A stretch of DNA of 60,630 nucleotides, counting the filler. It is 4 parts of 4 records of this genome, joined end to end, with 100 filler letters (N's around TTAATTAATTAA, not from the genome) between each part and the next. Parts side by side here need not be neighbours in the genome. Positions count along the whole stretch, not along the records: positions 23,851 to 50,835 come from SRR20825006_1388; 3 more parts are not named here. One strand, written 5' to 3'. The position numbers and the translations under genes were made by a program. Below are positions 23,853 to 47,182 of the stretch, piece by piece (position 1 is the stretch's first letter; every line of letters starts with the position of its first letter). The notes beneath the pieces were generated by a model, which was not told where the DNA came from, ran no database searches, and saw only the letters and a list, made by a program, of their open reading frames with translations.

Positions 23853-24668
23853 CCGACCCACAGAGGTCCCAGATGGACCTTCTTTCTTTACTACGCCTCT
23901 CCGTTGCCGCACACACCGTGGATTCCGAACGAGCGTTTCAAAGGAACATCGCGGAGAGGCACGTACGGTGATGTGATTCGGGAAATCGACTGGCAGGTCG
24001 GTGAACTTATGACAGTTCTCGACGAACAGGGCGTCGCGGAAAACACTCTGTTTATCTTCGCGTCGGACAACGGCCCGGTACTCGGGATGAACGGCGGTGA
24101 TGCTGGCCCGTTTCGCGATGGCAAATGGACCGACTTTGAGGGCGGCATACGTGTCCCATGCATCATGCGCTGGCCGGGTATGATTGAGCCCGATTCGACG
24201 ACCAGTCAGATCACCGGAATCGTGGATCTGCTGCCGACGTTTTGTTCAATCGCTGGAGTCGACTCGCCGGGCGACCGCGTGATCGACGGGCGTAACATTC
24301 TGCCGTACATGAAGGGCGAGAAGGTTACGAAGCCGATCCACGAAACATTTATCGTGCCCAGTTCGGTGATTCGTCACGGTCGCTGGAAACTGCTTGTTCG
24401 CGACTTGAAGCCGGGCGGTAAGAGCGGTCGCGAGGGAAAACGACCGGCGGCTTCCGCAGGATCGCTTTTCAATCTGCAGATCGATCCGGGTGAAACGCAC
24501 GATGTCTCAGCCGACTATCCCGAAGTCGTACTCGACCTTCGACGTCGGATGGACGCCGCGGTCAGGGAACTGAAAGCCAACAGCCGACCGATTGGCAGAC
24601 TCCCAGACGTGCCAGCTCCCGCAAAAAAGAACAACGCTGACAGCCTCCGCCAAACAAGACTGAAATGA
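23853..24668 (+). CDS. Arylsulfatase family protein, 5'-truncated
   Basis: FFLYYASPLPHTP, YGDVIREIDWQVG, SDNG, EGGIRVP, DPGE. Confidence 0.85.
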   Translation, partial: PTHRGPRWTFFLYYASPLPHTPWIPNERFKGTSRRGTYGDVIREIDWQVGELMTVLDEQGVAENTLFIFASDNGPVLGMNGGDAGPFRDGKWTDFEGGIRVPCIMRWPGMIEPDSTTSQITGIVDLLPTFCSIAGVDSPGDRVIDGRNILPYMKGEKVTKPIHETFIVPSSVIRHGRWKLLVRDLKPGGKSGREGKRPAASAGSLFNLQIDPGETHDVSADYPEVVLDLRRRMDAAVRELKANSRPIGRLPDVPAPAKKNNADSLRQTRLK

Positions 24669-26959: not shown

Positions 26960-26983
26960 GTCAACCAAAGGAGCAAACAATCG

Positions 26984-28450
26984 ATGCGTTTCAGACTTGC
27001 ATTATCGATCTTCATCGGCGCGATCCTATCTCTTTCCGCATGTTCAGCCTGCGCCGGCGCGTCGCCGGACAAGCCAATGAACGTGCTGTTTCTGGTTGCG
27101 GATGATTTGAATAGTTGGCTGCTCGAGGATGCCGATCGGTACGCGGGCCGAGTCGTTGCCCCCAATCTTCGAAAGTTGGCTGCCAGTGGAGTCAACTTCA
27201 CGCGAGCGTATACCGCAGCGCCGGTTTGTTCGCCGTCTCGCACCGCATTCTTTTCCGGCGTAGCTCCTTGGAAATCGGGTATCTACAACAACGCGCAGAC
27301 CATCAACAAGAGTGAGGTAGTGAACCGGGACGAAGTGTTATCACTGGCAGGACTGTTCAAGAAGAACGGCTACGGCACTTTTGGGTACGGCAAAATCACT
27401 CACGGCTGGGACCAGAAAAAATACTGGGATGACAAAATTGGCCACAAACGCGATCCGGCTCCTCCCGGTGCGTCTTTGGCAGGACTCAGCGGCGGAGAAC
27501 AGGATTGGGGAATCATCCATCTCGCCGAAGAACAAATGAATGACACCGGAGGAGCCAACAAAGCGATCGCAGTGCTGGAGAAACAACACGACAAGCCATT
27601 CTTCCTGGCATACGGCACGTTCAATCCGCACATGCCCTGGTATGTGCCGAAGAAGTATTTTGACATGTACCCTCTGGACCAGATCGTCCTGCCCGAACTG
27701 AAGGCCGACGACCTGGACGACCTTCCTCCCTTGGCCAAAGCGGTGAGTGACGGGATCGGAAGTTTCGCTGACAAGGTCATCGAGTCTGGCCAGCATAAAG
27801 AGGCGGTGCAGGCCTACCTGGCCACAACGACCTACGTCGACACTCAGTTCGGGCGTGTCCTCGACGCCCTAGAAAACAGTCCGTACAAGGACAACACGAT
27901 TGTCGTTTTCCTCACTGATCACGGATTTCACCTTGGAGAAAAACATCACTGGCAAAAGACGACTCTCTGGGAAGAGGGCACGCACACGTTATTGATGTTT
28001 CGTGCCCCTGGAGTCAGCCAAACCGGCGGCGTGTCTGAACGGTTCGTTTCCCTGATGGACATCTATCCGACTCTTGCGGAGCTCTGCGGCCTCACGCCTC
28101 CAGCCTACATCGATGGACGCTCGTTAGTTCCGCTGCTCAAGGACCCAACGGCTCCGTGGGAAAGCACCGCCATCACCGGATTGTGCGATAAGAGCAAAAC
28201 GGATCTGGCCTATATCAGCATCCGCAATGAACTCGGACGCTACACCCGCTACGGGGCGAACGAAGAAGAATTCTACGACGCCACCAAGGATCCTCATGAG
28301 TGGACCAACCAGATCGACAACTCAAAATATGCCACCACCGTCGACAGACTCCGCGCCCTGGTCCCCAGTTTCGAGGATGCCGCTCAACCGCTTCCCTCAG
28401 CGTTGACTACGAAACGCAGGGGAACCCGAAAAGAGAAAAAGAAGAACTAA
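26984..28450 (+). CDS. Sulfatase (iduronate/choline-sulfatase-like)
   Basis: [33 protein letters not shown]. Confidence 0.88.
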
Positions 28451-28498
28451 TCCAATCCCTTAGCATCACAAAGACAAGTTGATCAAACAGGACGAACC

Positions 28499-29773
28499 AT
28501 GAACACCTTGCCTCAAAACAAGCCTTCACGTCGCACGGCTTTGAAATCCATCGGCGCGACCACCGCGCTTGCCGCGTCCGGCCTGTTGCCGTCATCGATG
28601 TACGCCACACCGTCGACCTCCGCAAACGGCAAGTTGCGAGTTGGCTTAATCGGTGCGGGCGGGCGAGCCAAATGGCTGACGCGTGCATTGGGTCGCGAAT
28701 CCCATCGAGCCGAACTGGTCGCGGTCTGCGATTGTTATCTGCCGCAGATCGATGTTCTCGCGGCAGACAACAAGAAAGATCCAAGAGCCGGTGACTCCTG
28801 GAAACGCTATCAGAGCTATGAGCAGATGTTTGAGCAGGAGGATCTCGATGCGGTCATGATCGCGACGCCGGATCATGTGCGCGTGCGAGCGGCAATGCTC
28901 GCTTGCACCAAAGGCCTGGATGTCTACGCGGAAAAGCCGCTTAGCTTTAGCATCCCGGAAGGTCGGGCACTGGTCAAAGCGGTGCGAAAGCACAAACGCA
29001 TTTTGCAGGTCGGCACGCAACAACGCAGCACTCCGATCAATCAGTACGCGTGCGAGTTCATTCGTGACGGTGGACTTGGGAAAGTCGCCACGATCCTCGT
29101 GAAAAAGTACTCAGGCTCTCGGCCTGCAACCGGCCTCGACAGCCAACCCGTTCCCGACGGCATGGACTGGAATCGATTTTGTGACCAGGCACCGCTTGTT
29201 GACTATCACGAACAGCTTCATCGTCGGTGGCGAAATTTCGACACCTTCACGGGCGGACCCATTTGCGATCGAGGGTCACACGCGCTGGACATGGTTCACC
29301 TTGCGATGGGTTGGGAGAACGTCGCCCCCACTCGGATTGAACCCACCACAGAAGCGGAGAATGCCAGGGACCGTGGTGTGAGGTTGTATTACCCGGACGG
29401 CACCGTCATTCGACTGGAAAGCACCGACGGACCGGCCTTTGGCGGCATCTTTATTGGCGAGCAAGGCAAAATCGAAATCAATCGAGGACGCTTCGCCTGC
29501 AACCCGAAGGACTTGCTTCAGCCTTTTACCGGCTCTCAAACGGAATCGCATGTTGGCAACTGGCTGGATTGCATTGAAACCCGCGAACAGCCCAATGCGC
29601 CGGTGGAAGTCGGCCACCTGATTACCAGTGTCGCGCACTTAATCAACATCTGTCGCACCACAGGCCGCACGATCAACTGGGACGCGACCAAAGAACAAAT
29701 CATCGGCGATGACGCTGCCAACGCATTGTTGACGAAACCGCGACGTCCCGAGTTTCCACTTCCCGCTGTTTAG
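28499..29773 (+). CDS. Gfo/Idh/MocA oxidoreductase with Tat signal
   Basis: [34 protein letters not shown]. Confidence 0.9.
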
Positions 29774-29787
29774 CCACAGGAACGCAA

Positions 29788-30498
29788 ATGCTTTCTCACT
29801 TCTTTCGTCGTTTGAATCGTGCGAAAACGCGACGGTTTCGGTCAACGATCGCTCTCGCTGCGATCGCGGTCTTGATGTGCTGTGGCACCGCCTTAGCCGA
29901 TGATTGGGTTCCCCTGTTCGATGGCAGAAGCCTCGGCGGCTGGAAACCGTCACGCGACAACACGCAGTTCGCGCTCACCGATGGTGTCATTACTGGCACG
30001 AGTTCCGGCCAGACTCATTTCCTGCACACGGTCGAAACTTATGGTGATTTTGAACTCGAGATGGAAGTCAAACTTCACGACACCGATCTGAATTCAGGCG
30101 TCCAAATTCGAACTGCGTTGACTCGCAATAACGCGAAAGGTCAATCGAGAGAATCGATTCATGGACCTCAGGTCGATATTGGAAAATCTCCCGGCCGCAG
30201 CGGGCACATCTTTAACCAGGGCAATGGTGCCTGGATCACACCCAAAGAAGACCTGGTCCGCAACGAGCTGATGGTCAATGACAAATGGAACAAGCTGCGT
30301 GTGTTGGCCGTTGGGCCACGAATTCAAACTTGGATCAATGGCAAGCAAGTCGCGGATGTCACTGATAACGAAGCCTACACAAAGTATCCCTCCGGCGTGA
30401 TCGCCTTGCAGGTACACGGTGTCAAAAATTCACCCGAGAAACCACGCCACGTTTCCTTTCGATCCATTCGCATTCGCAAATTCGAATCTGTCAAGTAA
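29788..30498 (+). CDS. DUF1080 (3-keto-disaccharide hydrolase-like) protein
   Basis: [38 protein letters not shown]. Confidence 0.88.
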
Positions 30499-30552
30499 CA
30501 ACTGCACTCTCATGTCAACCTACAGCAACGACAATACGTGAGCATCATAAAT

Positions 30553-31926
30553 ATGAAACATCTTCTAACGCTCCTGATACTCGCCGCGACTGCAGGTAGT
30601 CTCTGCGCAAATGACTCGCGCCCGAACGTCGTGCTGATCCTCAGCGATGATCAGGCATGGACCGACTACGGCTTCATGGGGCATCCACACATACAGACGC
30701 CACACCTAGATCAACTGGCTCGCCGGAGCATTGTCTTTGAACGCGGGTATGTGGCGGCTCCCCTGTGTCGGCCGTCCCTGGCGACGCTGGTCACGGGACT
30801 TTTTCCCTCGCAGCACGGAATCACCGGGAATGATGTCGATGGTTACAACAATCGCGCGGCTCTGGACGTTCCGCTGCGTGAGGCGTTTCACAAGCATGCC
30901 AGCGTGATCCGAATGCTTACCGCCAATGGCTATCTGACTCATCAGTCCGGCAAGTGGTGGGAAGGCTCGGCGCAGGACGGAGGATTCACTCACGGGATGA
31001 CTCATGGCGACCCGAAGCGAGGCGGTCGACACGGCGATGTCGGCCTGACCATTGGACGCGAAGGCATGCAGCCCGTGACGGACTTCATCGATCTTGCCGT
31101 TGAGGAAGACAAGCCGTTCTTTGTTTGGTACGCACCATTTCTGCCACACACTCCCCACAACCCACCGAAGCGACTGCTTGAAAAGTACGCCGTTGAAGGG
31201 CGGGCCAAAGACGTCGCCCGCTACTACGCAATGTGCGAATGGTTCGACGAAACCAGTGGAGAGTTGTTGAACTACCTTGACCGGAAAGGCGTCACCGAGA
31301 ACACGCTGGTGTTCTACGTTTGCGACAATGGCTGGGCCGCGCCGAGTACCAACACGGACGATCCCCATCAGAAACTGTGGAAAGCCTACGCCCAGCGGTC
31401 GAAGAGTTCCCCGTATGAAAATGGTATCCGCACACCAATCATGGTCTCATGGCCGGGACACGTGAAGCCGGGCCGGGCCGAGGACTTCGCTCACTCAATC
31501 GACTTTTTTCCGACAATCGCCGCCGCCACTGGTATCAATGCTCCGGCCAACCTTCCGGGCCTTGATCTTCTCGACGCAGAGGCTCGAGGGCAGCGTGATC
31601 GAGTCTTCGGCGTCACGCACGCAACCCACAATATGACGCCTGGGAATCCCGACGGCACATTGCAGTATCTCTGGTGCGTGGAAGACGAATGGAAACTGAT
31701 CGTCCGTCAGCAAGGCAAAGACACGACCAAGTACAAAGCTCTTCACGTCTGGGATCAGGCTCCCGCGAGGCTCTATCACATCGAATCGGATCCCCACGAG
31801 AAGAACGACGTCGCCGCAAACCATCCGGAAAGAGTTGCTCGCTTGAAGAAGGAGATCGACGGTTGGATCAGCAGCCTTGCCACGCGGGAAATCAAACCAG
31901 AAACCACGAGGAGACCCAACAGATGA
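30553..31926 (+). CDS. Sulfatase with atypical CRPSL motif
   Basis: [37 protein letters not shown]. Confidence 0.85.
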
Positions 31927-33470
31927 GGAACGGGATCGTCTTACTATTGCTGGCATCAATGCTGTCTGGCGGCGTTGCGATAGCGAACGACGTTACGAAG
32001 CCCAACGTTGTGCTGTTGTTCATCGATGACTGGGCGTGGAACGGGTCGCCGGTTGCGATGGATGACTCGATGCCGAATTCGCACATGCCGATCCTGCAGA
32101 TGCCGAATATCGAACGACTGGCTCGCGAGGGAATGAAGTTCACCAGCGCGTATGCTTCGCCGCAGTGTTCCCCGTCGCGAGTTTGTGTTCAGACCGGCCA
32201 GTCCTCGCCACGCAATGGCTTCACTGTGTTCATGAACGATCGCGGACAGGACTACTTCGACGAAAAGGGCTATCCCGACTTTCCGGTGATTCCCTGCGTG
32301 TCGGACATGACGATCGACGCGGACGCGGTGACGATCCCTGAAGCTTTAGAGCCGCTCGGCTATGTCAGCGCTCACATCGGCAAATGGCACATGCGAGGCG
32401 ATCCCGGGGATGAAGGATATGTGGTGCATGACGGCGACACCAGCAACAAACCTGGAAACACGTTGCCGGCTGGCGCAAACCAGCGACTGCCCGACGACCT
32501 GACCGATCCCAAGCTGATGTTCAGCGTCACCCAAAAGGCGATCGACTTCATGACCGAGCAGGCCACGGCCGACCAGCCTTTCTATTTGCAGATCTCACAC
32601 TACGCGATGCACGAAGGCCGCGAGTGCCTGCCGGCGACGCGTGAGAAGTACGTCCGACATCCACTCGTCCAGGCGTACTACCGGAAAATCGGGAAGACGG
32701 CCGAGACTGTCAAACGCAAGGAAGATCCGGCGATCTGGCTTGGGATGGGCGACGATCTCGACGGACGCATCGGAGCCGTGCTCGACCGAATCAGCGAGCT
32801 GGGAATCGAAGACAACACGTATGTTGTGCTGGTGTCGGACAACGGGTACCGGCACAAAGAGCTTCAGCTGACCGAGGGTCTCACGCAGCCACACCATGCA
32901 GCCAAGTGGTGGGTCTGGCAGGGTGGTATTCGCGTTCCAATGATCGTTCGAGGTCCCGGCATCAAGCCAGGTTCTGTCTTCAATGGCAACGTCGTCAACT
33001 ACGACTTCCTGCCAACATTTCTTGACTGGGCTGGCGGCGATCCGAACACACTGAACAACATTGACGGGGTCAGTCTCGCTGCCTACATGGCCGGCGAGCA
33101 GCCAACCGACGCGTTCCTCAACCGGAATCTCTATTTCCACTACCCGCACTATCGTTCGAGCATGCCGCATTCCGCCGTCGTCTCCGGCACGCATAAGCTA
33201 CTGCATTTCTACGAGCGACCCGACCTTCCCATGCTTTTTGACCTGACGTCCGACCTAGGCGAAGTTCACAACATCGCATCCACTCACCCGAAAGAACACC
33301 GGCGGCTCTACGACGACATGATGAACTACTTCGACCAAGTCGGCGCCCGTCTCCCAAAGCCAAATCCGAACTACGACGCCGCTGCCTACGGCAAGTCAAA
33401 GGAGCACGAAAAACGTATCCAATGGGGACCATTCGCCGGCAGCCGTCAACTGGCCGAGGACGAGAGATAG
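31923..33470 (+). CDS. Sulfatase
   Basis: [35 protein letters not shown]. Confidence 0.88.
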
Positions 33471-33707: not shown

Positions 33708-33771
33708 GTACAATGGCCTTCCAGCCAAATCCTTTCGCGGATTGATCGAAAAGCCTTGTAGGCCCTCGTGC
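33708..33771. repeat. Degenerate REP doublet (intergenic)
   Basis: GTACAATGGCCTTCCAGCC ... GCCTTGTAGGCCCTCGTGC; decayed match to the consensus arms. Confidence 0.55.
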
Positions 33772-33823
33772 TCAATGAGACGCGATCACGAATCTGAATC
33801 ACACTTCACGCTCTTGAGCCGAC

Positions 33824-35212
33824 ATGAAGCAATCAAAATCAATGAGTCACCGATTGGCCGGATCGTACGATGGCCTTCCAAGGCCGTCGAGAAAACATCT
33901 TCGAAATGAGGCGACGGCCTTGGAAGGCCATCGCACTCCCTCCCGCCGCCGCATCCTGAAGGCGGCCGGCGTCTCGATCGCCCTGCCATTGCTTGAGTCT
34001 CTCAATGCGACCAATGCGGTTGCCGCACCGCAACGGGACGAACCAGCAAAGAGGATGGTCTTTGTCAGCACGGGACTGGGGATGAATCCTCGCACGTTCT
34101 TTCCTGACGAGTTCGGTGCTGATTTCGCTCCGTCCCCGGTTTTGCCAACCATGATGAAGCACCGGGATGAGTTCACGTTGTTCTCGCACATGGATCACCC
34201 GAATGTCTTCACCAAACACGCGGGCATCAGATCTCTGCTGAATGGCGTGCTGAATAAGAACGCCCGTCCTGGCCAAAACATTTCGATCGACCAGGTGGCT
34301 GCGGGTCACGTTGGCTACACCACGCGGTTTCCTTCGCTGCACATTTCGCTCGGTGGTGCCGAGAGTGCTTCGTATAGTTCGTCCGGAATCCTGCTGCGCC
34401 AGGAAACATCGCCGGAGGCTCTGTTCAAGAAACTTTTCGTGGCTGATTCAGCGGCCGCCCGGAAGGCTCGCGCATTGGAACTGGAAGAACAAGGCAGCGT
34501 CCTTGATCTCGTCCGCACCCGGGCCCGCCGATTGGAACGCAGCGTCAGTCGAACCGACCGGGCGAAGTTGGACGAGTACCTGACCGCGATCCGGGAAGCA
34601 GAAGAACGCCTTCAGGGAAAGCGTCGTTGGCAGAACATCCAAAAGCCGGAAGTCTCGAAGAAGGAATACGATCCCGCGGCCCGAGGACACGGCGACTTGG
34701 ACTACGGATTCCTCAGTCCGGTCATGTTCGATTTGTTGGCGCTCGCCCTGCAGTCTGATTCCAGTCGCGTCATCACCGCGAACTTCTCGATGCACAACCG
34801 TATGATCGAAATCGATGGCGTGACGAAGGGCTATCACACGCTTTCACACCATGGAAACCGAGAGAGTCATCTCCGCGAGCTTCAGATCATCGAAACGTTT
34901 TACATGGAGCAGCTATCAAGGTTCATCGGAAGACTGAAGGGAATCAACACGAACGGCGGATCTCTCCTGGATGACACGATGGTGTTCTTCGGCAGCGGTA
35001 TCAGCGACGCATCCCGACACTCCAACCGCAATCTCCCAATCATCCTGGCTGGCGGTGGGCTGAAGCATCAGGGCCACTTCGACGCCGAGCAGCGGCACAA
35101 CGGCAAACAAACTCCACTGAACAATCTTTTTACTACCATGCTTCAGCACTTCGGCATCGAGATCGAATCTTTCAATGGTGCAACCGGAAACCTAAACCAC
35201 GTTCTCGCCTAA
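33824..35212 (+). CDS. DUF1552 domain protein with in-frame REP-derived N-terminal segment
   Basis: SRRRILKAAGVSIALPLLESL, SIDQVAA, KLDEYLTAIREAE, YHTLSHHG, GSLLDDT, NLPIILAGG. Confidence 0.88.
   Translation: MKQSKSMSHRLAGSYDGLPRPSRKHLRNEATALEGHRTPSRRRILKAAGVSIALPLLESLNATNAVAAPQRDEPAKRMVFVSTGLGMNPRTFFPDEFGADFAPSPVLPTMMKHRDEFTLFSHMDHPNVFTKHAGIRSLLNGVLNKNARPGQNISIDQVAAGHVGYTTRFPSLHISLGGAESASYSSSGILLRQETSPEALFKKLFVADSAAARKARALELEEQGSVLDLVRTRARRLERSVSRTDRAKLDEYLTAIREAEERLQGKRRWQNIQKPEVSKKEYDPAARGHGDLDYGFLSPVMFDLLALALQSDSSRVITANFSMHNRMIEIDGVTKGYHTLSHHGNRESHLRELQIIETFYMEQLSRFIGRLKGINTNGGSLLDDTMVFFGSGISDASRHSNRNLPIILAGGGLKHQGHFDAEQRHNGKQTPLNNLFTTMLQHFGIEIESFNGATGNLNHVLA
33865..33936. repeat. REP doublet inside DUF1552 ORF
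   Basis: GTACGATGGCCTTCCAAGGCCGTCG - 22 nt - CGACGGCCTTGGAAGGCCATCGCAC. Confidence 0.9.
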
Positions 35213-35213
35213 C

Positions 35214-35276
35214 GTACGATGGCCTTCCGAGGCCGTCGTCCCACTTTCCCTCGACGGCCTTGGTAGGCCATCGTAC
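35214..35276. repeat. REP doublet (intergenic, upstream of RAYT remnant)
   Basis: GTACGATGGCCTTCCGAGGCCGTCG - 13 nt - CGACGGCCTTGGTAGGCCATCGTAC. Confidence 0.9.
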
Positions 35277-35289
35277 ATGTGACACATCG

Positions 35290-35604
35290 ATGACGGACCA
35301 CTTCAAACTGCCAGCGTCTCCTGGATTCCGCCGTCTTCATCCGGATCTGTCTGTCCGTATGTACCACCGCCATTTGCCGCATTGGCGGCAAGACGGTGCA
35401 ACTTACGCAGTTACTTTCCGGCTTGCCGATTCGATTCCACAGGAACATGTGAGAGACCTGAAACGCTGGCGCGAAATCTGGGAACGTTCTCATCCGCAAC
35501 CGCGCTCGGAGGCCTGGTTGGATGAAGGGCACCCTCGCGAACAATGGGTTCGCTGGATTCACTCGGAATGGGACGAAATGGGATGGGGATTCAAAGATGA
35601 GTAA
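35290..35604 (+). pseudogene. Truncated REP-associated tyrosine transposase (RAYT / Y1 transposase) N-terminus
   Basis: YHRHLPHWRQDGATYAVTFRLADSIP resembles the RAYT-type N-terminus; no HUH motif or catalytic Tyr region before the stop; REP doublets on both sides. Confidence 0.75.
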
Positions 35605-38152
35605 ATCCGATTCGTACGATGGCCTTCCAACGCCGTCGGAGTTTTGCTTGTGGTCCCGGATTCGACGGTCTTGGAAGGCGATCGTACTGTTGGTCATCTT
35701 GGTGTCCTCGGCACCAATCCACGCCAACGACCAGTACGCACCCATCCAACCGTTCCTCAATCGCTACTGCGTTGGTTGTCACGGCGAGACCAAGCAGAAG
35801 GGCGAAGTGCGTCTGGATGACTTTGCCCAAATCGATGGCGCTCTTTGGAACGATGTCCACGACCAAATCCATGACGCCAGTATGCCGCCAGAGGACGCAC
35901 GTCAACCGACGGCGAAGGAACGCAGCGACATCGCGAAACTTGTTCTGCAGATCTCACGCGACGAATCCTTTTCCATCTCGACAGGGTTTCGGCGTCTGAA
36001 CCGCCGCGAATTTCGCAACACCGTCCGTGACCTGCTTGGCCTGAAACCCGGCATCTATGATCCGGCAGCCCGAGTCTTCAAAGACGAGATCGAGGGTGGC
36101 TTTGACACCAACGCGGACGAACTGGTCATCTCCAACGAACTGCTTTTGGAGTACCTCGAATCAGCCGAACACAGTCTGCGCATGGCTCTTTACCTGGAGG
36201 ACCTCTCGCCTCCCGCGACCACGGTCGTCGAGTACAACGCTGGGAGTCTGCAGAGCGGCGATCGACGTTTTACCACGAACAAAAAGAACGCGACTGTCCT
36301 GCGAGGCTCCGGGCAGTACTCCACAAGCAAAGGTCCACGCGAGGTCGCGATTGCGGGCAACTACCGGGTCACGGTCACGGCCGCTGGAGTGGATCGCAAC
36401 AACTATGGCAGGATGAAATTCCCGCCTGCAAGCGGTCCAATCCGAATGGGAATCGGCACACGGTTGGACAGCGAGGGCCAAACGTCCGCTTCCAAGCTGG
36501 TGAAGTCTTTTGATCTGCAAGATGACGAGTTCCAGGAATACAGCGTTGTCATGTGGCTCGAGAAAGGAGCCTACCCGTGGGTTGGGTTTTTGAATGGTGC
36601 CGGCAAGCCCGCGTCCAGCGTCCGCCAGGCAATCCGGCAACGGAAAGTCGATCCGAAAGAGGTGAGCCCACAGAACTACCAAGGCCCGGGCGTGGAAGTG
36701 AGTCGGCTCACGGTCGAAGGTCCGTTGGATCCGGAGTGGCCGCCTGCAACTTACCGGACCGTCTTCCAAGCAGACGAGATGCCCGACTTCGAAAACGCCA
36801 AAGTCCGCGTGTCGCTGATCGAAAGATTCTTGACGCGTGCGTTCCGTCGTCCTTCGAACGAACAGGATGTGCGGGACTACGTCAAGTTTCTCAACGAAAA
36901 GTATGATGACCTTCCGAGGCCATCGCGAACAAGCCGCAGGAACTCTTCGGCCTTGGAAGGCCAGCGTTCACGTTGGCAGGAGGCATTCATCAAGACATTT
37001 GCCGCGATCATGGCCTCGCACGATTTCCTCTACATCAAAGAAGAGATCGGCCCGCTTCCGCCGTACGAGCTGGCCAGCCGTCTGTCTTATTTCCTTTGGA
37101 GCACCATGCCCGACGAGGAATTGTTCCAGCTCGCGAGGTCGGGCACGATTCTCGACGCGGACGTCTACGCGGGGCAGGTCGAACGAATGCTCCGCGATCC
37201 GAGAACGGATGAATTCGTCCGCGGATTCGCCACCCAATGGCTCTCGCTTGATTCGCTTGGAACCATGCCGCCGGACATCAAAGACCGACGCTACTCGGCT
37301 TACCACCGAGGCAAATACGAAGCTGCCTTTCGCAACGAGACGCTGCACTTCTTCCGGCATGTCCTGTATGAAAACCAGCCTGTCGGCGACTTCCTCGATT
37401 CCGACTATGCGATCATCAATGAAACTCTAGCAAACGTCTACAACCTACCGTTCCCCCGTAAGATGGCCTTCCAAGGCCGTCGAAACAGAGACTTCAAACC
37501 AAGCCCCGACGGCCTTGGAAGGCCATCGTACGAACAACTTCTGACATCCACTGGATTCCGGCGAGTCTCACTCCCCAAGGGATCGATGCGCGGCGGTTTG
37601 CTGGGACAGGGCAGCATCCTCGCTCTGACGTCCAACGGTGTCGAAACTTTGCCCGTCACCCGTGGTCACTGGATCCTCGACGAGCTTCTGGGGACGCCAC
37701 CGCCTCCTCCACCGGAAGAGGTTCCGGCTCTGGTTCCCGATCTGAACGGAGTGGACACACCACGCGACCAACTCGTTCGTCACCGGAAAGACCCAGCCTG
37801 CTTCGAATGCCACAAACAGATGGACCCGCTCGGCCTTGCTCTGGAAAGCTTCGATGTCATCGGCAGATACCGAACGACTTACGAGACCGGTCCCAAGATC
37901 GATCCATCCGGCGAGATGTTTGGTACTAGGTTCAAGGACGTGACAGAGCTACGTCAAATCCTCCGGTCCCAAGAAGATCAGTTCGCAAAGAGCCTGATGA
38001 TCAAGCTGGCTGAATACGCCAAAGGGCGACGGCTGAACCGGCGCGATCTCGATCTTGTGGATCAGCTCGCAGCGAAATCGAAGAGGGATGACTATCGATT
38101 CCAATCATTGCTGCGTCACCTCCTGCTGAGCGACCTCATGCGTGACCGCTGA
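35597..38152 (+). CDS. DUF1592/DUF1588 planctomycete cytochrome-c-motif protein carrying three in-frame REP segments
   Basis: [79 protein letters not shown]. Confidence 0.9.
35614..35687. repeat. REP doublet in 5' end of DUF1592 ORF
   Basis: GTACGATGGCCTTCCAACGCCGTCG - 24 nt - CGACGGTCTTGGAAGGCGATCGTAC. Confidence 0.9.
36901..36969. repeat. REP doublet inside DUF1592 ORF (diverged)
   Basis: GTATGATGACCTTCCGAGGCCATCG - 19 nt - CTTCGGCCTTGGAAGGCCAGCGTTC. Confidence 0.8.
37458..37531. repeat. REP doublet inside DUF1592 ORF
   Basis: GTAAGATGGCCTTCCAAGGCCGTCG - 24 nt - CGACGGCCTTGGAAGGCCATCGTAC. Confidence 0.9.
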
Positions 38153-38160
38153 ACCCACGC

Positions 38161-38268
38161 TACCCCGACGTCCCTGTGATTCCTTGCGTCTCGGACATAA
38201 CGAGTGGTGCGTACGCGGTGACGATTCCCGAAGCCTTGAAGCCCCTTGGTTATGTCAGCGTTCACATC
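38161..38268 (+). pseudogene. Sulfatase gene remnant, homologous to 32271-32378
   Basis: Translates as [36 protein letters not shown], versus [36 protein letters not shown] in the upstream sulfatase. Confidence 0.85.
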
Positions 38269-38429
38269 CCAAAGCTCAATCCGAATCACATCCTCGCTGC
38301 CTAAAGCAAGTCGAAGGAGTACGCACAGCGGATCCAATAGGGACCATTCTTCGGCAGCAGGCAAGTGAGAGAGGACGAGTGATACGACGTGTCAAAGTTC
38401 TCGCTTGCCTACTGCAACTTGTCCCTCAT

Positions 38430-39617
38430 TCAGCGTGTTTCGCGGAGCAGTGCATCGGTCTCTTCGATGCGGAAGCGAGTGGTCACGACCGAGTGTTTTT
38501 CTGGGCCGGGGCGATACTTGATGTAGGTGGTCGCCACGATCGTTCCATCGGGCAACAACTCGACGCCAGGATAACCACAATCGCGAACGTTCTTCGCGTG
38601 ACTGTGCAAGAGCTTGATACGATATTGCCCGGGCCGATTCTCGCGAATGTCCTCATAGGTTCCCACCCAAGCCACGAAGTGCCCAAGCGTCGGGCTGCCA
38701 GGAGCCTGATCGCGAAACGCGAACACCCAGCGACCGTCCGGCAACGCCACGCCGATGTGCCGATCGCCCGACAATCCCCATGGCGTATCAACAGGCGTGC
38801 TCCAGGTCTGCCCCTCGTCACGAGAGAACATCATCAAACTGCGACCGCGGTGCGTGTTCTCTCGCATCAGGCAGCACAGCTCTTCGCCGTCAGGTGAACG
38901 AAACACAAACGGCTCGCAGGGATTCTTTCCTTCCACCTCCGCGACAACTCGCGGCTCAGACCACGTGAACCCGCCGTCCGCCGTGATGGTTTGCAACACG
39001 GTCAACGGTGCTTTGTCTTTGCCGTCCGGTCCTTTGTGATACAGCCCCAACGTTCGGCCATCTTTCAGTGTCACCACGCTACTGAACGTCATCACACATG
39101 GAAAACCAAGTGGTGGCATCTCCGTCCAAGTCTTCCCATCATCTTCGCTCATGATGCTCGGCATTCCCGGACCGCCACGCTGATTGAGCGCCGCCGAGAA
39201 CACCCACAATCGTGGCTTCCCCTCGGGATCCGCAATCCGATAGATACTCGGACAATTCTGATGCTTGGAGAAATTGGGCGGCAACTGATCATCCAGTCGC
39301 GACCACGTCAGTCCACCATCCTCGCTCTTGGCCATCGGGCCGGCGGAGCCACCGTGATTGACACACCAAACACAATAGATCGTGTCGCTCTCCGGCAACC
39401 TCAACGTCGTCGGGTGGCCTTGATAGACTTCTTCTGTTCCCGCAGCGATGACGACCTGGCGTTCTGTTTGCTGCGACAAATCCACGACCGGTAGATCAGG
39501 ACCATCGCCGGATGCAACCGAAGTGGCCGAGATGATTCCAGCCATCCAAAGCAAAGGAAGGCAAGCCAAAACAGAGAACAGATTGCTTCGACCAGAGAGC
39601 GATCGATTCATGGTCAT
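38430..39617 (-). CDS. Sialidase-family / BNR Asp-box beta-propeller protein
   Basis: Asp boxes [37 protein letters not shown]; signal peptide. Confidence 0.85.
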
Positions 39618-39718
39618 TTCCAGTGGGGATACGAGGTGGGACTTCGATTCAAAACCGAAAGTCTACTCGCTTCCCAAGTCGTTTTGGCAACGACCGCGTC
39701 ACGGATGGTCGAGCCAGG

Positions 39719-41416
39719 TCAATCAAACCCGTTGCCAGCCTCATAAAGCTCTTTGACTTGCTCGGCGGAGAAAGCTCCGTCGAAGATAGCCACTTCATCG
39801 ATCCGGCCTCGCAGTTCTCGGTTGTAGCGAACCGATTCGACGCGAAGGGATGACTCGCCCGCACTTGCCTGTTCATCTGAATTCACAGCAACCGGATCCG
39901 CGACCGTTGTTCCGAAAGCACCGATGGTGCACGGACCAAAGGCAAGCGACGTCGTGTTTTCCCATTTTCTTTGCTGCGCGAGTTCGCCATCGATGTAGTA
40001 GGTGGCCTCACGCTTTTGAGCGTCAATCGATGCCACCAAATGCGTCCATCGCCCCAGAGGAACTTTCTTTTGCGCCGAATGAATCGTGTAGGCATGCGAC
40101 ACACCAACGCTCATCCCACCGTTCCTTTGGATGTTCCAATGGTGCTCACCGGATTGCCAGTCTCGCGTGTTGAAAAACGCCTGCAACGCTTGATCAAAAC
40201 GATTGACCTGAATCCATCCGGAGATCGTGAGTGCATCAAAGGTCCCAGGGACATCCAATTCCACACGATCACCAGCACGTTCCAGCAACAAGGCTCCCTT
40301 GTTCGGCCAGCGGCCTGTCGCCCAGATGCAACCTTGGATTTGCCCATCAATGCCCAACCCGGATTGACTCCGATCGCGAAGCAACGTGGGAGCGTCCGCG
40401 TCCGGCTCAAAATCAAAGTACAAAAGCGTCGAAGGATCTTCGCGCCGCGCCGTGCTGTCGGCGAGCCAACGCTGGTATCCGATTTTGCTGCGAGTTGTGA
40501 ACGCGACATCATCCGTCGACGAAAGATGCTTGGTGCCCACCGAGGTCAAGTGCACAGCGGTGTCCTCCTGGATCCGCCGCGAAGGCAAGTTGGCGGTGTG
40601 CACGTTGACCTCGCCGGCAAAAACGTGCAGCTCCACGTCTTGTTCTTCGCTGACATAGACACCGAATTCGGTGCCCAGGTCTTCGACATCCGCCGTGGGT
40701 GTTTGAATCACAAAGCCATGGCCGGTCTCGGGAACGATCGCGCGTGCTCGCCCCGCGTCCATCCTCATCCGTAGTGAATTGACGACGGTGAACCGTGCTG
40801 GTGCCTCGATCGACACATCGACCCCACTGTCAAAACGAAGCGTGATGGAACCTTCGGTGAGTTCGTAATCACCCTTTTCAAAGGAGTTGTTCTGAGGCGA
40901 CAAACCTTCGTTGAACCGGTGGTTGTACCCCGTCACCAACCAAGCCACTTCGGACGAGTCCTGCGTGACTGGCTCGTCGTCAACGGACTGCGGTGCCGTT
41001 GTCGACTCCGGCTGCGAATGAGCCACGGTGGGCTCGGGCGACGCTTTCCAAACGCCAGAGGACAACACGCCAACCACAGCAAGCAAACTGGCCGCAGCAG
41101 CGATCGTCAGCCATCGTGCATCGATTGGTTGACGAGATGCAGTGACAGGCAATCGCGGTTCGAGCGTCTCAGATTCGCTGGAGCTCGACAGGCGAGAACT
41201 CGCTTCGCTTGGCAGGAACGGCCGCGAATTTTCGTCCTCGCCGATGTCTTCGTTCCAGTAGTGTCGCAACTGCGCATCAATCGCAGCGGCGCGGCGAAAC
41301 CGGTCTCGGTAGCTTCGCTTTGCTTCCAATGCCAACCGGAGTTCGGCTTGCTCGGTTTCGTTCAACTCCCCGAGAAAGTACTTCTCGATCAAGTCATGGA
41401 TCTGTTGTTCGTTCAT
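39719..41416 (-). CDS. FecR + LamG domain anti-sigma factor
   Basis: TM helix, IEAPARF, GFVIQTP...EDLGTEFGV...HVFAGEV, LamG-like WTHLV...YIDG...GRIDEVAIF. Confidence 0.85.
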   Translation of the reverse strand: MNEQQIHDLIEKYFLGELNETEQAELRLALEAKRSYRDRFRRAAAIDAQLRHYWNEDIGEDENSRPFLPSEASSRLSSSSESETLEPRLPVTASRQPIDARWLTIAAAASLLAVVGVLSSGVWKASPEPTVAHSQPESTTAPQSVDDEPVTQDSSEVAWLVTGYNHRFNEGLSPQNNSFEKGDYELTEGSITLRFDSGVDVSIEAPARFTVVNSLRMRMDAGRARAIVPETGHGFVIQTPTADVEDLGTEFGVYVSEEQDVELHVFAGEVNVHTANLPSRRIQEDTAVHLTSVGTKHLSSTDDVAFTTRSKIGYQRWLADSTARREDPSTLLYFDFEPDADAPTLLRDRSQSGLGIDGQIQGCIWATGRWPNKGALLLERAGDRVELDVPGTFDALTISGWIQVNRFDQALQAFFNTRDWQSGEHHWNIQRNGGMSVGVSHAYTIHSAQKKVPLGRWTHLVASIDAQKREATYYIDGELAQQRKWENTTSLAFGPCTIGAFGTTVADPVAVNSDEQASAGESSLRVESVRYNRELRGRIDEVAIFDGAFSAEQVKELYEAGNGFD

Positions 41417-41427
41417 GAGAAGAGAGT

Positions 41428-41958
41428 TCAGAGAGGGAGATCGAAATCGGCCGAGGAAAGTCGCTGCACCACACAGTCGTGCAACTTCACGCGGAGACGT
41501 CCGATCCGCTTGTACAAACTATTCGCGGAATGCCCACCCGCTTCCGCCAAAGCCAACACGCCACCTCGCGAGGTGTGAGGAGCCAGCAACAGCTTTTGAT
41601 GGTCTTCGCTGAACGACTGCAGACAATGCTGGATCGCGGATTGCTGTGCCTGCCGCATTTCCGCTTCGTCCTCTGCGGATTCATCCATCAATTTGGAGAT
41701 CAACTCTTCGCTGAGCACCCAATTCTGGCGAGCATGCCGACGCCTCGCTTTCAAAATTTCGAAACGCAAGATGACTTTGGACCAAGGCAGAAACTCGTCG
41801 TCCGATTCCAGTTGATGAATCTTTCTCCACATCACCAAACTAGCTTCCTGCAGCACATCGTCGACGGCGTTCCAATCCGGCAGAAACGCGCGAGCGATGC
41901 TGGCGAGTTCTCGCTCGTGCTTGAGGAACAGTGATAAGAAACGACCTTCGTCCATCAT
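41428..41958 (-). CDS. ECF sigma-70 factor (Rhodopirellula/Verrucomicrobium type)
   Basis: DDVLQEASLVMWRK, FLPW, LYKRIGRLRVKLHDCV; co-oriented with the FecR gene. Confidence 0.88.
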   Translation of the reverse strand: MMDEGRFLSLFLKHERELASIARAFLPDWNAVDDVLQEASLVMWRKIHQLESDDEFLPWSKVILRFEILKARRRHARQNWVLSEELISKLMDESAEDEAEMRQAQQSAIQHCLQSFSEDHQKLLLAPHTSRGGVLALAEAGGHSANSLYKRIGRLRVKLHDCVVQRLSSADFDLPL

Positions 41959-42189
41959 CGATTGGGTTCAACTGAGGGGAAGATTGGAGATCGATCGAGC
42001 CTACCCGCGGGCCGCCTGATGTTGTCACGCCACCAACAAACTCCCGCCAACAAACGAACTTGCCGGTCGAAATCGGAAAAAAACGAATAAAAGGCAGGCA
42101 GGTTCCTTCGTCAGCGGGAGTATGCAGGACAACCACCGATCACAATCGGTGTTTTTCTGGCGTGCACGCGTCTCGTAGCGAGGTTTTTT

Positions 42190-45100
42190 ATGCTGAATTT
42201 CCGTTTCGATGCCTTTCGATCATTCTATCTGGCTGGCGTTGCGATCGCTGCTCTGGCGTCTTGCGACGTTCTGCCTGGCGTGTTGCAGGCGAAGGCCGAT
42301 GAGATCGAGACGGTGGACTTCAGCAGTCAAGTCAGACCGATCCTTTCCGATCGTTGTTTTCACTGTCATGGCCCCGACGCGGACAATCAAGATTCCGAGT
42401 TCCGGCTCGATAGCCAAGAAAACTTGGTCGCCGACCTCGGAGGCTACGCTGGCGTCGTGCCCGGCGATCTGGAGGCCAGCGAACTGATCGCCCGCATTCG
42501 CAGCGAGGACGAGTCAGACATGATGCCGCCACCGGACAGCAACCGGTCGCTCAGCGAAGAAGAAAAACGAATCCTCGAACAATGGGTCGCCCAAGGCGCC
42601 CCCTACGAAGGACACTGGGCGTTCGAACCACCAACCCGGCCGAAGGTTCCCACGGCGGCCGTGACCGAATCGGGATGGCCCAAAGACGTCATCGATCGCT
42701 GGACGAAGAACCCCATCGATGCCTTCATCGCTCAAAAACTGCTCTCCAATGAACTCACACCCTCACCCGACGCGGATCCCGCCACCCGCCTCCGACGCGT
42801 TTCGCTGACTTTGACGGGGCAACTCCCCAGCCCTGAACTGCAAGACAGATACTTGGCCGATCCAAGTGAACAAGCCTTCGAAGAGGCAGTCAATGAATTG
42901 ATGTCGACCTGGGACTATGCCGAACGTCAAGCATTGCTGTGGATGGACGCCGCTCGTTATGCCGACACCGACGGCTATCAAAACGACCCCGAACGCAGTA
43001 ACTGGCCCTGGCGTGACTGGGTGATCCAAGTGTTCCACAACAACATGCCGTTCGACCAATTCACGGTCGAACAGCTTGCCGGCGACATGCTCCCCAACGC
43101 AACGGACGAGCAACGACTCGCCACCGCGTTCAATCGAAACCACCGTCAAAACAGCGAAGGCGGTGCGTTGGCAGAAGAGTTCTTGGTCGAGAACGTGATC
43201 GATCGCGTGGAAACAACCGGAACCGTTTGGCTTGGTTTGACGCTTGGATGCACGCGTTGCCACGACCACAAATACGATCCCGTCTCGCAACGCGAGTTCT
43301 ACCAGTTCTACGGTTACTTCAATAACATCGGCGAGCGTGGGATCGGCAAAGGCGTGAGTGCTAACCCCACGATGAAATTCGCTTCGCCGCTGGCAACAGC
43401 ACCCCCACAAGAGCTCGCAGCGGTGCAGCGGGCCGAGCAAGCGATCCAGGATGCCGAGTCCGGGATTCATCAACGGATGGACCAATGGGCGGCCGAAACC
43501 CAACAACTGCTGCAAACATCCCTCGACGTGAAATGGCAGCACGTCACCCTCGACGAAATCCAACTGACCGGTGAAGGGAAACTGGAAAAAGAATCCGAAC
43601 ACACGGTTGTCTTCCAACCCACCGAAGGAAAAAACGCCAAGAACGTTGCCTATGAATTCGTGATCCCAGGCGATCTTTCCGGCACGAGCATGTTCAAGGT
43701 GACCGCTTTGCCGGACAAGCGTTTTGGTGCACCTCGCAAGTTGGCACCGAGCGTGAACGGCAACTTCGTGTTGACCGATTTTGAGATTCACGTCGGCGAC
43801 AAAACCCAAACGGTGCAATCCGTTTCCGCTTCCTTTGAACAGGAAAAATACCCCGCGTCGAACGCAATCGATGAGGATCCCAAATCAGGTTGGGCTGTCT
43901 TTGGACCGAACGTTGAAGAGCAACCCGTTGACATCACGTTCCTGTTGCAAGAACCGATCCAGTCCGACGCCGAGCAACCCACCAAGCTCACGCTTCGATT
44001 CGACAGCTCGTTCGCGAATCACGTCATCGGCAAACTCCAAATCGAACGTTCCGCGTCGGCGACGGATTTGCCCAAGCGGGTGACTGGACTGAATCAAAAG
44101 CTGAAGGACATCCTGTTGAAACCCGCCGAGGATTGGACGAAAGCGGATCGCAAACAATTGCTGGCTCACTACCGCAAAATCGACCCACCGCTGAAGGCCG
44201 CCCAACAACAATTCTCCGTCGCCGACAACGCGTTGATGCAGAAAACGGGTCCCCGTGTTCCGGTGATGGTGATGAAAGAACGTGAGTCGGATCCGCAACC
44301 GGCCTACCTTTTGGACCGAGGCCAATACGATCAACCGGTCAAAGACGAACCGCTGCCGCGAGGCGTTCCCTCGGCTCTGCTGCCTTCCTCGGATGCACGC
44401 CAACCGCAGGATCGTTTGGAACTGGCACGCTGGATGGTCTCTCGTGAGAACCCGCTGACAGCTCGAGTCACCGTCAATCGGATTTGGCAAAGTCACTTTG
44501 GGTCCGGCATCGTCAAAACGGCCGAAGACTTTGGTCTGCAAAGCGAGATGCCCAGCCATCGCGAATTGCTCGATTGGTTGGCTGTGGAGTTCATCGAATC
44601 CGGCTGGGATGTCCAAGCGATGCATCGTTTGATCGTGACCAGTGCGGCCTTCAATCAATCGTCCAAGCGGAGTCACGGGTTCAACGACCCGGACCCTGGA
44701 AATCGACTGATCAGCCGCGGGCCTCGCTATCGCGCCGATGGGTTCGTGATCCGTGACCTTGCCTTGCAAGTGGCGGGAATTGCCAACGACAAAGTCGGCG
44801 GGCCGTCCGTGAAGCCCTATCAACCGAGTGGGTTGTGGGAAAGCGTGGCTGCCAATGCCGGCACGCGATACAAGCCCGATCAAGGCGACAGCCTGTATCG
44901 CAAAAGCATGTACACGTACTGGAAACGAGCCGTCAATCCGCCGCGTCAAACCATCTTCGACGCCAGTGGTCGTGAGGTTTGCAACGTCCGCGTTCGACGC
45001 ACCAACACGCCGCTTCAGGCTCTGGTGTTGATGAATGACCCGACGTTTGTGGAAGCCGCCCGCAACTTGGCTCAACGTGCCTTGCAACTCGATGCCACCG

Positions 45101-45351
45101 ACGACGAACGCCTCTCGCAACTCGCTTTCTGGGCGATCGCCAAACGGCCTTCATCATCGACCTTGAAAGTGATGTCACGCAGCTTGTCTTACTTCCGAGA
45201 TCACTACCGCGCTGATCCGGAAGCCGCCGAGAAACTGCTGGCCGTTGGGGAATCGAAACCCGACAAACAACTGGATGCGACGGAGTTGGCGGCGATGACT
45301 GCCGTGGCTCACCTGATCTTGAACACCGACGAATTCATCACCGTTGAATAG
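42190..45351 (+). CDS. DUF1549/DUF1553 (PSD1) planctomycete cytochrome c domain protein
   Basis: VRPILSDRCFHCHGPD, HWAF, NPIDAFI, WMDAARYADT, CTRCHDHKYDP, NPLTARV.VNR.W, TNTPLQAL. Confidence 0.92.
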   Translation: MLNFRFDAFRSFYLAGVAIAALASCDVLPGVLQAKADEIETVDFSSQVRPILSDRCFHCHGPDADNQDSEFRLDSQENLVADLGGYAGVVPGDLEASELIARIRSEDESDMMPPPDSNRSLSEEEKRILEQWVAQGAPYEGHWAFEPPTRPKVPTAAVTESGWPKDVIDRWTKNPIDAFIAQKLLSNELTPSPDADPATRLRRVSLTLTGQLPSPELQDRYLADPSEQAFEEAVNELMSTWDYAERQALLWMDAARYADTDGYQNDPERSNWPWRDWVIQVFHNNMPFDQFTVEQLAGDMLPNATDEQRLATAFNRNHRQNSEGGALAEEFLVENVIDRVETTGTVWLGLTLGCTRCHDHKYDPVSQREFYQFYGYFNNIGERGIGKGVSANPTMKFASPLATAPPQELAAVQRAEQAIQDAESGIHQRMDQWAAETQQLLQTSLDVKWQHVTLDEIQLTGEGKLEKESEHTVVFQPTEGKNAKNVAYEFVIPGDLSGTSMFKVTALPDKRFGAPRKLAPSVNGNFVLTDFEIHVGDKTQTVQSVSASFEQEKYPASNAIDEDPKSGWAVFGPNVEEQPVDITFLLQEPIQSDAEQPTKLTLRFDSSFANHVIGKLQIERSASATDLPKRVTGLNQKLKDILLKPAEDWTKADRKQLLAHYRKIDPPLKAAQQQFSVADNALMQKTGPRVPVMVMKERESDPQPAYLLDRGQYDQPVKDEPLPRGVPSALLPSSDARQPQDRLELARWMVSRENPLTARVTVNRIWQSHFGSGIVKTAEDFGLQSEMPSHRELLDWLAVEFIESGWDVQAMHRLIVTSAAFNQSSKRSHGFNDPDPGNRLISRGPRYRADGFVIRDLALQVAGIANDKVGGPSVKPYQPSGLWESVAANAGTRYKPDQGDSLYRKSMYTYWKRAVNPPRQTIFDASGREVCNVRVRRTNTPLQALVLMNDPTFVEAARNLAQRALQLDATDDERLSQLAFWAIAKRPSSSTLKVMSRSLSYFRDHYRADPEAAEKLLAVGESKPDKQLDATELAAMTAVAHLILNTDEFITVE

Positions 45352-46864: not shown

Positions 46865-47182
46865 TCGCCCCCACCGGGTGACCCAACGCACGACGGCCCC
46901 GCACGCGAGTCTCTCCGATTCTGACCGCTCGGGAAGCAAGGCCAAGCAGCAACCATCCGAAGATGGCGACGCTACCAATAGGCCCACAAAAAAGAATCAC
47001 GACTGCGTTTCCTGTATCCTGGCTGCGAGTCATGCCGCTTGAAATCACTGCGGCACAACTGCGTTCGCGCCAAAGGAAGAATCTTTTGCGAAGCATGCGA
47101 GGGTTCTTCCAAAAAACGCGAAGGATTCTCGCGTTGCCCGCGAATGCATTGGCAACGCCATCTTCCCCGGAGCCTTATCAGC

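Follow-up and report, generated by a model that had tools for sequence, protein, structure and literature searches.

How do short palindromic repeats come to be read as parts of proteins, and does the host cell put the resulting peptides to use? The question is raised by a DUF1552-DUF1592 operon in a stretch of DNA of 60,630 nucleotides (the window), which joins four contigs by linkers of N's; the contig that concerns us occupies positions 23853-50835. An initial annotation of this contig had described six inverted doublets of a 25-nt repetitive extragenic palindromic (REP) hairpin, read in frame inside planctomycete proteins around the remnant of a REP-associated tyrosine transposase (RAYT), and had proposed a RAYT-mobilised element that adds peptide loops to neighbouring proteins. 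We consider it highly probable that the doublets belong to a GTAC-footed REP of the GTAG superfamily which, together with a now decayed REPtron (a RAYT flanked on both sides by cognate REPs), colonised an accessory operon, and that the encoded peptides are tolerated passengers. The exception, a likely one, would be the right doublet of the REPtron, which stands at the beginning of the DUF1592 gene. The closest named relatives of the host proteins are proteins of Rhodopirellula, including R. europaea. The features on which the argument depends are these.

33824..35212, plus strand: DUF1552 (PF07586) gene, Pfam match at 2.8e-70; start ATG 33824 or 33842
33865..33936, plus strand: DUF1552 REP doublet, N-terminal, before the SRRR motif; amino acids 14-38 counted from 33824
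35214..35276, plus strand: left REP doublet of the REPtron, intergenic, 1 nt past the DUF1552 stop
35290..35604, plus strand: RAYT (TnpA-REP) remnant, 104 amino acids, recognised by alignment to the intact RAYT at L003:1802-2488; its stop overlaps ATG 35597
35597..38152, plus strand: DUF1592-family multi-domain protein (Pfam PSCyt1, PSD3, PSD5, PSD4, PSCyt3, PSD2) with two CxxCH motifs; start ATG 35597 or TTG 35648
35614..35687, plus strand: the REPtron's right REP doublet, which now forms the 5' end of DUF1592; its spacer holds GGAG (35638-35641) and TTG 35648, and its right arm reads RRSWKAIV before a host hydrophobic stretch
36901..36969, plus strand: site A, a decayed in-frame REP doublet; amino acids 435-458, in the turn that connects two DUF1595-domain helices
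37458..37555, plus strand: site B, an in-frame REP doublet (37458-37531) with a tail of 24 nt that is not REP; in a loop where the DUF1592 domain ends
33708..33732, plus strand: decayed half-REP with 8 mismatches, intergenic, upstream of the operon

REP doublets in the window

Ten arms match the 25-mer at up to four mismatches and pair into five inverted doublets with the foot outside. Eight of these arms match at up to three mismatches, compared with none in 100 shuffles, and the two arms of the 36901 doublet have four mismatches each. Spacers measure 22, 13, 24, 19 and 24 nt for the doublets at 33865, 35214, 35614, 36901 and 37458, respectively. The single unit is 25 nt long, with a 9-bp stem, a 4-nt loop and a GTA overhang (fold z -4.7); four doublets form long hairpins (z -5.8 to -10.5 against shuffles), and the decayed doublet at 36901 folds weakly (z -1.8). 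The unit has the form of a GTAG-superfamily REP, an imperfect palindrome of 20-40 nt with a 5' GTAG-type foot, here in the variant GTAC; sister copies with a GTAG foot occur in loci L007, L016 and L046, and GTAG hairpins are found at related RAYTs as well. With inverted units, a variable spacer and a long hairpin, the five doublets are REP dimers, or REPINs (REP doublets forming hairpins).

Five of the six doublets originally reported were recovered with their coordinates, spacers and folds. The sixth, at 33708, was not: its supposed partner arm at 33747-33771 has 9 mismatches, a level at which 4-13 matches occur in each shuffled window, and the region shows no doublet fold (z 0.07). Copies elsewhere in the contig had been said to be missing, and indeed no further copy of the 25-mer was found at up to seven mismatches anywhere in the window; a match with 8 mismatches at 60206 lies on a different contig and is at background level. 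Four of the five local doublets overlap coding sequence. The hairpin contains no stop codon in any of its six frames, and the REP peptides that had been quoted from different frames are all correct.

A decayed REPtron and its intact relatives

The RAYT remnant lies between the doublets at 35214 and 35614, the arrangement of a REPtron, and the same layout is found intact in L003, L213 and L216. In L003, doublets of the same 25-mer stand on both sides of a RAYT of 228 amino acids that has the motifs NHVH, WEQESFDR and YIGRNP and passes the Pfam model Y1_Tnp, PF01797 (27.1 bits, cut-off 23). The copy in the window has suffered two in-frame deletions, of 15 and 107 codons, in which NHVH, WEQES and YIGRNP have gone; the HUH motif and the catalytic Tyr (YxxxNP) were both lost in the 107-codon deletion, and the remnant has no match in Pfam or NCBIfam. 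An intact RAYT, which the initial annotation had advised looking for, exists elsewhere, and the transposase of the system can be identified, but the local copy is dead, so any present-day mobility would require a copy in trans. A paralogous RAYT may exist in trans: in run X1, which is near-identical to this DNA and may be its source, REP-RAYT-REP matches spaced about 870 nt apart occur on another contig.

The REP sequence varies in step with the similarity of the RAYTs. In a sample of 40 loci with RAYT homologues, hairpins of the type GTACGAYGG...CCGTCG flank 10 of the 11 RAYTs that are at least 61% identical to the L003 RAYT (itself included) and none of the 29 that fall below 61%; 22 of those 29 have other GTAG hairpins. 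Together with the L003 locus, this bears out the earlier claim that doublets and RAYT are cognate. Mobilisation of the doublets by the cognate RAYT would fit the co-variation and the empty sites described below.

A large planctomycete RAYT clade (L201-L241, L131 and L136), nearly every member of which has its own GTAG, GTAC or GTGG hairpin family, provides a natural set for the study of REP-RAYT co-variation and guide specificity.

Filled and empty sites in the host genes

Sites A and B were compared across 31 of 120 listed DUF1592 homologues. Site A is filled in 4 of the 31 and site B in 3, and the remainder are without REP peptides; P0031 has unrelated extra residues at both loops. Gaps against the orthologues had been predicted, at about 23-30 amino acids, and the alignment shows clean gaps at both sites, with a net gain in the window of 18 amino acids at A, below that range, and of 29 at B, within it. 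Among filled alleles the net gains run from 18 to 22 amino acids at A and from 28 to 33 at B. They differ from the lengths of the doublets because host bases were lost and because site B has its extra tail; each insertion cost a few host codons, and the 8-codon tail at B is neither REP nor host. When the inserts are removed, 15 of 17 proteins are all 712 amino acids long, the other two having 713 and 714. At the DNA level, both sites are empty in genomes G001, G050 and G061.

Modelled in an empty orthologue, site A is a 2-residue helix turn and site B a 10-residue loop. In the AlphaFold model of the filled protein both inserts are low-confidence loops, with predicted local distance difference test (pLDDT) scores below 50 at 623-641 (site B). 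As with Rickettsia palindromic elements (RPEs), proteins that are not related to each other carry in-frame inserts in loops or at termini at this locus; in L027 (a sulfatase), L246 and L255 the same is indicated solely by coding score.

The description of the doublets as added loops fits A and B, which are internal. It does not fit those at 33865 and 35614, which are N-terminal, the latter having replaced a native start. The doublet of the DUF1552 gene is carried by 2 of the 39 homologues printed and, in addition, by P0278 and P0280. The ancestral start is retained upstream of the doublet in P0280; an upstream start is likewise retained in P0123, where the doublet looks secondarily lost. TTG 33920, inside the right arm, is an alternative start chosen by some gene callers. 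Compared with G001, the arms of this doublet differ at 1 of 50 bases and the gene at 185 of 1267 (P about 0.004).

A REP doublet at the start of DUF1592

In empty orthologues the DUF1552 stop codon TAA is followed by a single base and then by the ATG of DUF1592. In the window the REPtron occupies that junction, the ATG has been lost in a deletion of 25 nt of host DNA, and the right junction shows a TCGTA overlap. Because the insertion removed the native start, every plausible signal peptide of DUF1592 uses the REP-encoded RRSWKAIV, a segment included from each of the in-frame starts at 35522, 35597 and 35648. Translation from TTG 35648, with GGAG 6 nt upstream, would yield a predicted leader of 26 amino acids in which four residues are basic, the core is hydrophobic and cleavage would follow IHA. 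Starts beyond the doublet leave no more than 12 amino acids, and no basic residue, before the mature N-terminus. In P0002, behind the same MSK start, the doublet is 11 amino acids shorter and still in frame. Attachment of c-type haem requires export, a point of relevance to the two CxxCH motifs of this protein. On these sequence features, DUF1592 likely now owes to the right doublet both its start region and the basic n-region of its signal peptide. What is distinctive about the locus is that a doublet took the place of a lost gene start and probably now encodes the front of an export signal; a literature search whose coverage excluded most subscription journals found no account of this locus or of a REP-supplied signal peptide.

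A more far-reaching version of this history is that the dead REPtron was domesticated as the start and export module of a damaged gene (GGAG, TTG and n-region, or that n-region behind ATG 35597), its RAYT frame being retained as a bridge by which ribosomes pass from DUF1552 to DUF1592 and the doublets serving as exchangeable cassettes, with refreshed arms and swapped spacers, that move between gene lineages. We regard it as a tentative possibility, more doubtful than not. In runs X2-X4, all from one study, the remnant has a third deletion, of net 45 nt and in frame, which makes three of three deletions in frame, a result with a chance of about 1 in 27. In L155, a mini-ORF (open reading frame) that begins in the left doublet overlaps the ATG of the remnant. 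Against a bridging role, the mini-ORF of the L155 type is truncated in the window, and the purine-rich stretch that precedes the L003 start is missing from the remnant. Both proposals, of a remnant that bridges translation and of cassettes exchanged in place, are speculative.

Selection and allele history

The ratio of non-synonymous to synonymous substitution rates (dN/dS) in the core of the proteins is 0.085-0.123 for DUF1592 and 0.067-0.122 for DUF1552. Between the window and L155, both of which carry all the inserts, it is 0.12, with 35 synonymous and 14 non-synonymous changes in DUF1592 and 27 and 11, respectively, in DUF1552. For the alignable inserts dN/dS is 0.43-1.0. From the low values in the core and the high values in the inserts, the host genes are most likely functional and the inserted loops most likely near neutral. 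Purifying selection on the host genes (dN/dS 0.07-0.12) also speaks against their being pseudogenes, a case that the initial annotation had named as counting against its reading.

Insert-bearing and empty proteins together form one supported clade of nine. In approximately unbiased (AU) tests on 13 of the 17 rows, with groups defined by insert state and set after an earlier tree had been seen, the proteins filled at A and those filled at B were each rejected as clades (p-AU 0.020 and 0.025), and with them a single vertical origin of the site A or site B alleles; the group with N-terminal doublets was not rejected (p 0.33). For each site a single origin is nevertheless suggested, at A by flanking changes in common and at B by the common tail. 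The simplest account would be that short-tract homologous recombination moved filled and empty alleles between gene lineages; the inner tree is poorly resolved, and we make no claim for the order of events or the donors. Among alleles that are 97% identical, site B has two unrelated spacers, which we leave unexplained; the alternative spacer was seen, among the fetched loci, only in L155 and L156. The operon itself is patchy, with a close relative in 3 of 401 family genomes. A metagenome scan yielded three loci from 76 candidates, and P0002-P0005 are known at the protein level.

The REP family in other planctomycetes

A 21-nt part of the REP was found at no fewer than 124 loci, and all 80 titles listed are from Planctomycetota. 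Matches at up to three mismatches occur in 58 of 301 family genomes, with up to 284 copies, and a degenerate pattern finds copies in 8 of 23 genus genomes. Counts of genic and intergenic copies were drawn from other planctomycete genomes, with a copy called deep intragenic by a hexamer coding score (shuffles gave 0 matches in 364 kb). In a dispersed set of 110 loci, 1 of 103 scorable clusters lies deep inside a gene, the sulfatase of L027, 15 edge cases having been set aside; in a chosen set of 20 regions picked around REPtrons or clusters, which partly overlaps the dispersed set, 2 of 42 do (L246 and L255), all three calls resting on coding score without orthologue comparison. The window has 2 of 5 clusters deep inside genes and two more at N-termini. 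The REP is predominantly extragenic, and its density in the window is exceptional, not the rule. Because it is so rarely found deep inside genes in other planctomycetes, we do not see here a dedicated loop-adding system, a proposal to which the near neutrality of the inserts is also unfavourable.

The three intragenic cases are as follows. L255:10184-10254 (G001:C34) is an in-frame REP doublet in the middle of a 1772-residue beta-helix/PDZ protein; the orthologous DUF1552 gene follows 2.4 kb downstream of it. At L246:7227-7440 (G147:C5), at least four variant REPs contribute about 71 amino acids in frame to a glycosyl hydrolase 116 gene, with an intact RAYT at a distance of about 2 kb. L027:2501-2525 is a single in-frame REP (YDGLPRPS) in a sulfatase from a metagenome-assembled genome of Planctomicrobium. 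In L013, L035, L067, L068, L085, L093 and others, half of the hairpin is tandemly duplicated within one arm, which suggests slippage at the stem.

Proposed history and alternatives

The sequences show that the REPtron entered between DUF1552 and DUF1592, deleting 25 nt of host DNA with the DUF1592 start, that further doublets entered the N-terminus of DUF1552 and two loops of DUF1592, and that the RAYT later lost its catalytic core. We propose that these insertions are the work of this RAYT family and were most likely made by local hopping, at a time when it still had an intact enzyme. With a hairpin free of stops in six frames and with loops or termini as sites, insertions that kept the frame could have survived, their peptides being tolerated passengers rather than selected functions, apart from the right doublet of the REPtron with its presumed part in the DUF1592 start and signal peptide. 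Homologous recombination would be the simplest way in which filled and empty alleles were afterwards exchanged among gene lineages. Junction overlaps fall at GT/AC dinucleotides at the left of site A and at the DUF1592 N-terminus, a hint that would fit GT/GA cleavage directed by a GTAC guide. Such a guide gave GT/GA cleavage with the Marinomonas TnpA-REP, according to the accessible portion of PMC8266576; the accessible portion of PMC3479197 holds nothing on a GTAC guide.

Several observations weigh against this history. Some strains have split alleles (P0242/P0243 and P0260/P0261), and in L126 (G305:C155) the 3' end of DUF1592 is frameshifted and decayed with the site B doublet still present, so that the operon is dispensable in places. 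Protein databases hold mostly intact frames, so apparent conservation of frame is inflated. The coding-score threshold was fixed after earlier scores had been seen, copies at gene ends and N-termini are outside its reach, and the dispersed set is biased to young exact copies. The L003 RAYT fails NF047646, the NCBIfam model for REP-associated tyrosine transposases (63.8 bits against a cut-off of 80), though that model is its best match (E 1.5e-17). A search with L003 as query found no REPtron of the same hairpin in G245, G110, G016, G031 or G023, genomes that have 86-284 copies and are possibly incomplete. Finally, a pure passenger model leaves the high conservation of the DUF1552 arms unexplained.

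The part played by the local remnant can be doubted. Doublets might have been placed by a paralogue in trans, or have arrived ready-made with a horizontally acquired operon, the remnant being incidental. In G001, whose operon has no REPtron and whose genome has only 5 copies, doublets occupy the same DUF1552 site and a position 2.4 kb further upstream; P0004 has site A and yet a native start; and the second contig of run X1 offers a candidate source. However, the five doublets of the window lie no more than 3.7 kb from the remnant, with the other 23 kb of the contig free of them, the REP variant of the remnant is that found at the closest intact REPtron type, and recombination can part doublets from a REPtron, so that we treat this as a possibility of the lesser sort, to be kept in mind rather than preferred. 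Whether all the doublets are translated is a separate matter. Di Nocera et al. caution, in the accessible text of PMC3733652, that N-terminal REPs in general may be misannotated as coding, and the two N-terminal doublets here might be untranslated RNA hairpins, with only A and B translated. The in-frame TTG 33920 would give DUF1552 an N-terminus of normal length and is the start used in P0262, P0264 and P0267, and the arms in DUF1552 are conserved above the gene average, as an RNA or DNA structure would lead one to expect. We nevertheless think this fairly unlikely: the ancestral start of P0280 is upstream, P0123 kept its upstream start after apparent loss of the doublet, later starts in DUF1592 give no usable signal peptide, and the doublet of P0002 was shortened in frame behind an unchanged MSK start.

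The colonisation and passenger history has two other competitors, which take opposite views of the inserts. A RAYT-driven system that prefers genes and equips neighbouring proteins with useful peptide loops could account for the 2 of 5 deep intragenic and two further N-terminal clusters in the window, for the position of the L255 case some 2.4 kb from the DUF1552 doublet of G001 and of the L246 case some 2 kb from an intact RAYT, and for the persistence of inserts across proteins about 80% identical. With dispersed clusters intragenic in just 1 of 103, inserts that differ in frame, length and spacer and evolve at dN/dS 0.43-1.0, empty alleles in the majority, and an unrelated insertion in loop B of P0031 that points to tolerance of the loop, it is very unlikely. 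A decaying or silent operon, in which inserts would be tolerated as nothing is made, finds encouragement in the split alleles, the decayed copy in G305 and the occurrence of a close operon in only 3 of 401 family genomes, but the core dN/dS of 0.12 between the window and L155, both fully insert-bearing, and the breaks of the split alleles, which lie away from the REP sites, make it highly improbable.

Relation to known systems

In-frame REP dimers of 20-30 amino acids and REPtrons have been published (PMC3733652, PMC6006769, as far as their accessible text goes), and the phenomenon itself is ordinary. In the available part of their paper, Di Nocera, De Gregorio and Rocco (2013; PMC3733652) describe GTAG REPs in Planctomycetes, with head-to-head dimers and REPtrons, mostly intergenic, and also in-frame intragenic singles and 20-30 residue dimers, sometimes two per gene, most of them in Opitutus terrae of the PVC (Planctomycetes-Verrucomicrobia-Chlamydiae) superphylum. 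Quentin et al. (2018; PMC6006769) report, in the portion accessible, in-frame REPs inside subclass 2.4 tnpA-REP genes. These accounts do not support the assertion of the initial annotation that Rickettsia is the main known setting of palindromic inserts read in frame. With the GTAG REPs of PMC3733652, as described in the available part, the element has in common a foot tetranucleotide with a short hairpin, dimers with feet outside and a flanked tyrosine transposase, whereas its foot is GTAC. The same paper lists for R. baltica the families GTAG-20, -21 and -22, with peptides that differ from those found here, the comparison being by peptides and not by consensus. A term search of four supplements of PMC3733652 did not find DUF1592, DUF1552 or YDGLPRPS, and the remaining file parts may hold the family. 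For the intragenic cases in the accessible text of that paper, selection and allele mosaicism, analysed here, were not. The L003 RAYT shares the NHVH ... YIxxNP motifs with class 2 TnpA-REP proteins and has 228 amino acids compared with the 213 tabled for subclass 2.7 in the available part of PMC6006769; it resembles subclass 2.4/2.7 in motifs only. The inserts of that paper, so far as its accessible text describes them, lie in tnpA-REP genes, whereas host genes carry those of the window, where deletions have reduced the local enzyme to a remnant.

This locus differs from other repeat systems chiefly in where its copies lie and what accompanies them. The REPINs and RAYTs of Pseudomonas and enterobacteria, the subject of work by Bertels and Rainey, are reportedly inverted doublets with variable spacers and a single-copy RAYT, present in tens to hundreds of copies per genome and typically extragenic. 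Inverted doublets, a RAYT and high copy number are common to both; here, in contrast, four of five local doublets overlap coding sequence. With Rickettsia RPEs, as presented in the available parts of PMC3733652 and PMC3184786, the element shares in-frame palindromes in unrelated genes, in several frames. RPE-1 is longer than the REP, and the CGTC repeats, including RPE-4 and RPE-6, have no adjacent transposase (PMC3733652, accessible text). The REP of the window is accompanied by a cognate RAYT, and most of its copies lie outside genes; it may be called RPE-like for its behaviour at these sites. Delihas (2011; PMC3184786, in the part available) describes repeats fused to open reading frames, with Neisseria REP2 and Borrelia inverted repeats providing starts and 5' extensions. 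The donation of a ribosome binding site, start codon or N-terminal residues by a repeat is common to those cases and ours. To judge from the same portion of that source, those repeats are not RAYT doublets, whereas here the donation follows deletion of a native start and apparently adds the n-region of a signal peptide.

The locus is an unusually complete example, with filled and empty alleles at four sites, an intact cognate transposase in relatives, readable junctions and estimates of selection. One operon bears both on the insertion of REPINs by RAYTs, where a natural GTAC guide predicts cleavage at GT/GA instead of CT, and on the requirement of a host for REP-derived sequence, in this case the n-region of a signal peptide.

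Genomic context

The linkers, of N plus TTAATTAATTAA, lie at 14422-14521, 23751-23850 and 50836-50935. The four contigs that they join have G+C contents of 39%, 68%, 57% and 57%, and the DNA of the window is an unrelated mix. The contig with the REPtron is rich in sulfatases and glycoside hydrolases (23904-33470 and 38430-50650) and includes an extracytoplasmic function (ECF) sigma factor/FecR pair and a DUF1549/DUF1553 gene, contents typical of planctomycete polysaccharide loci. Two features border the operon.

31926-33470: sulfatase gene, upstream of the DUF1552-DUF1592 operon
38159-38392: decayed, internally deleted copy of the 31926-33470 sulfatase, directly after DUF1592, in two pieces (79% and 60% identical) with stops

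The position of the operon between a sulfatase gene and the relic of the same sulfatase may reflect the route by which the operon was inserted or duplicated.

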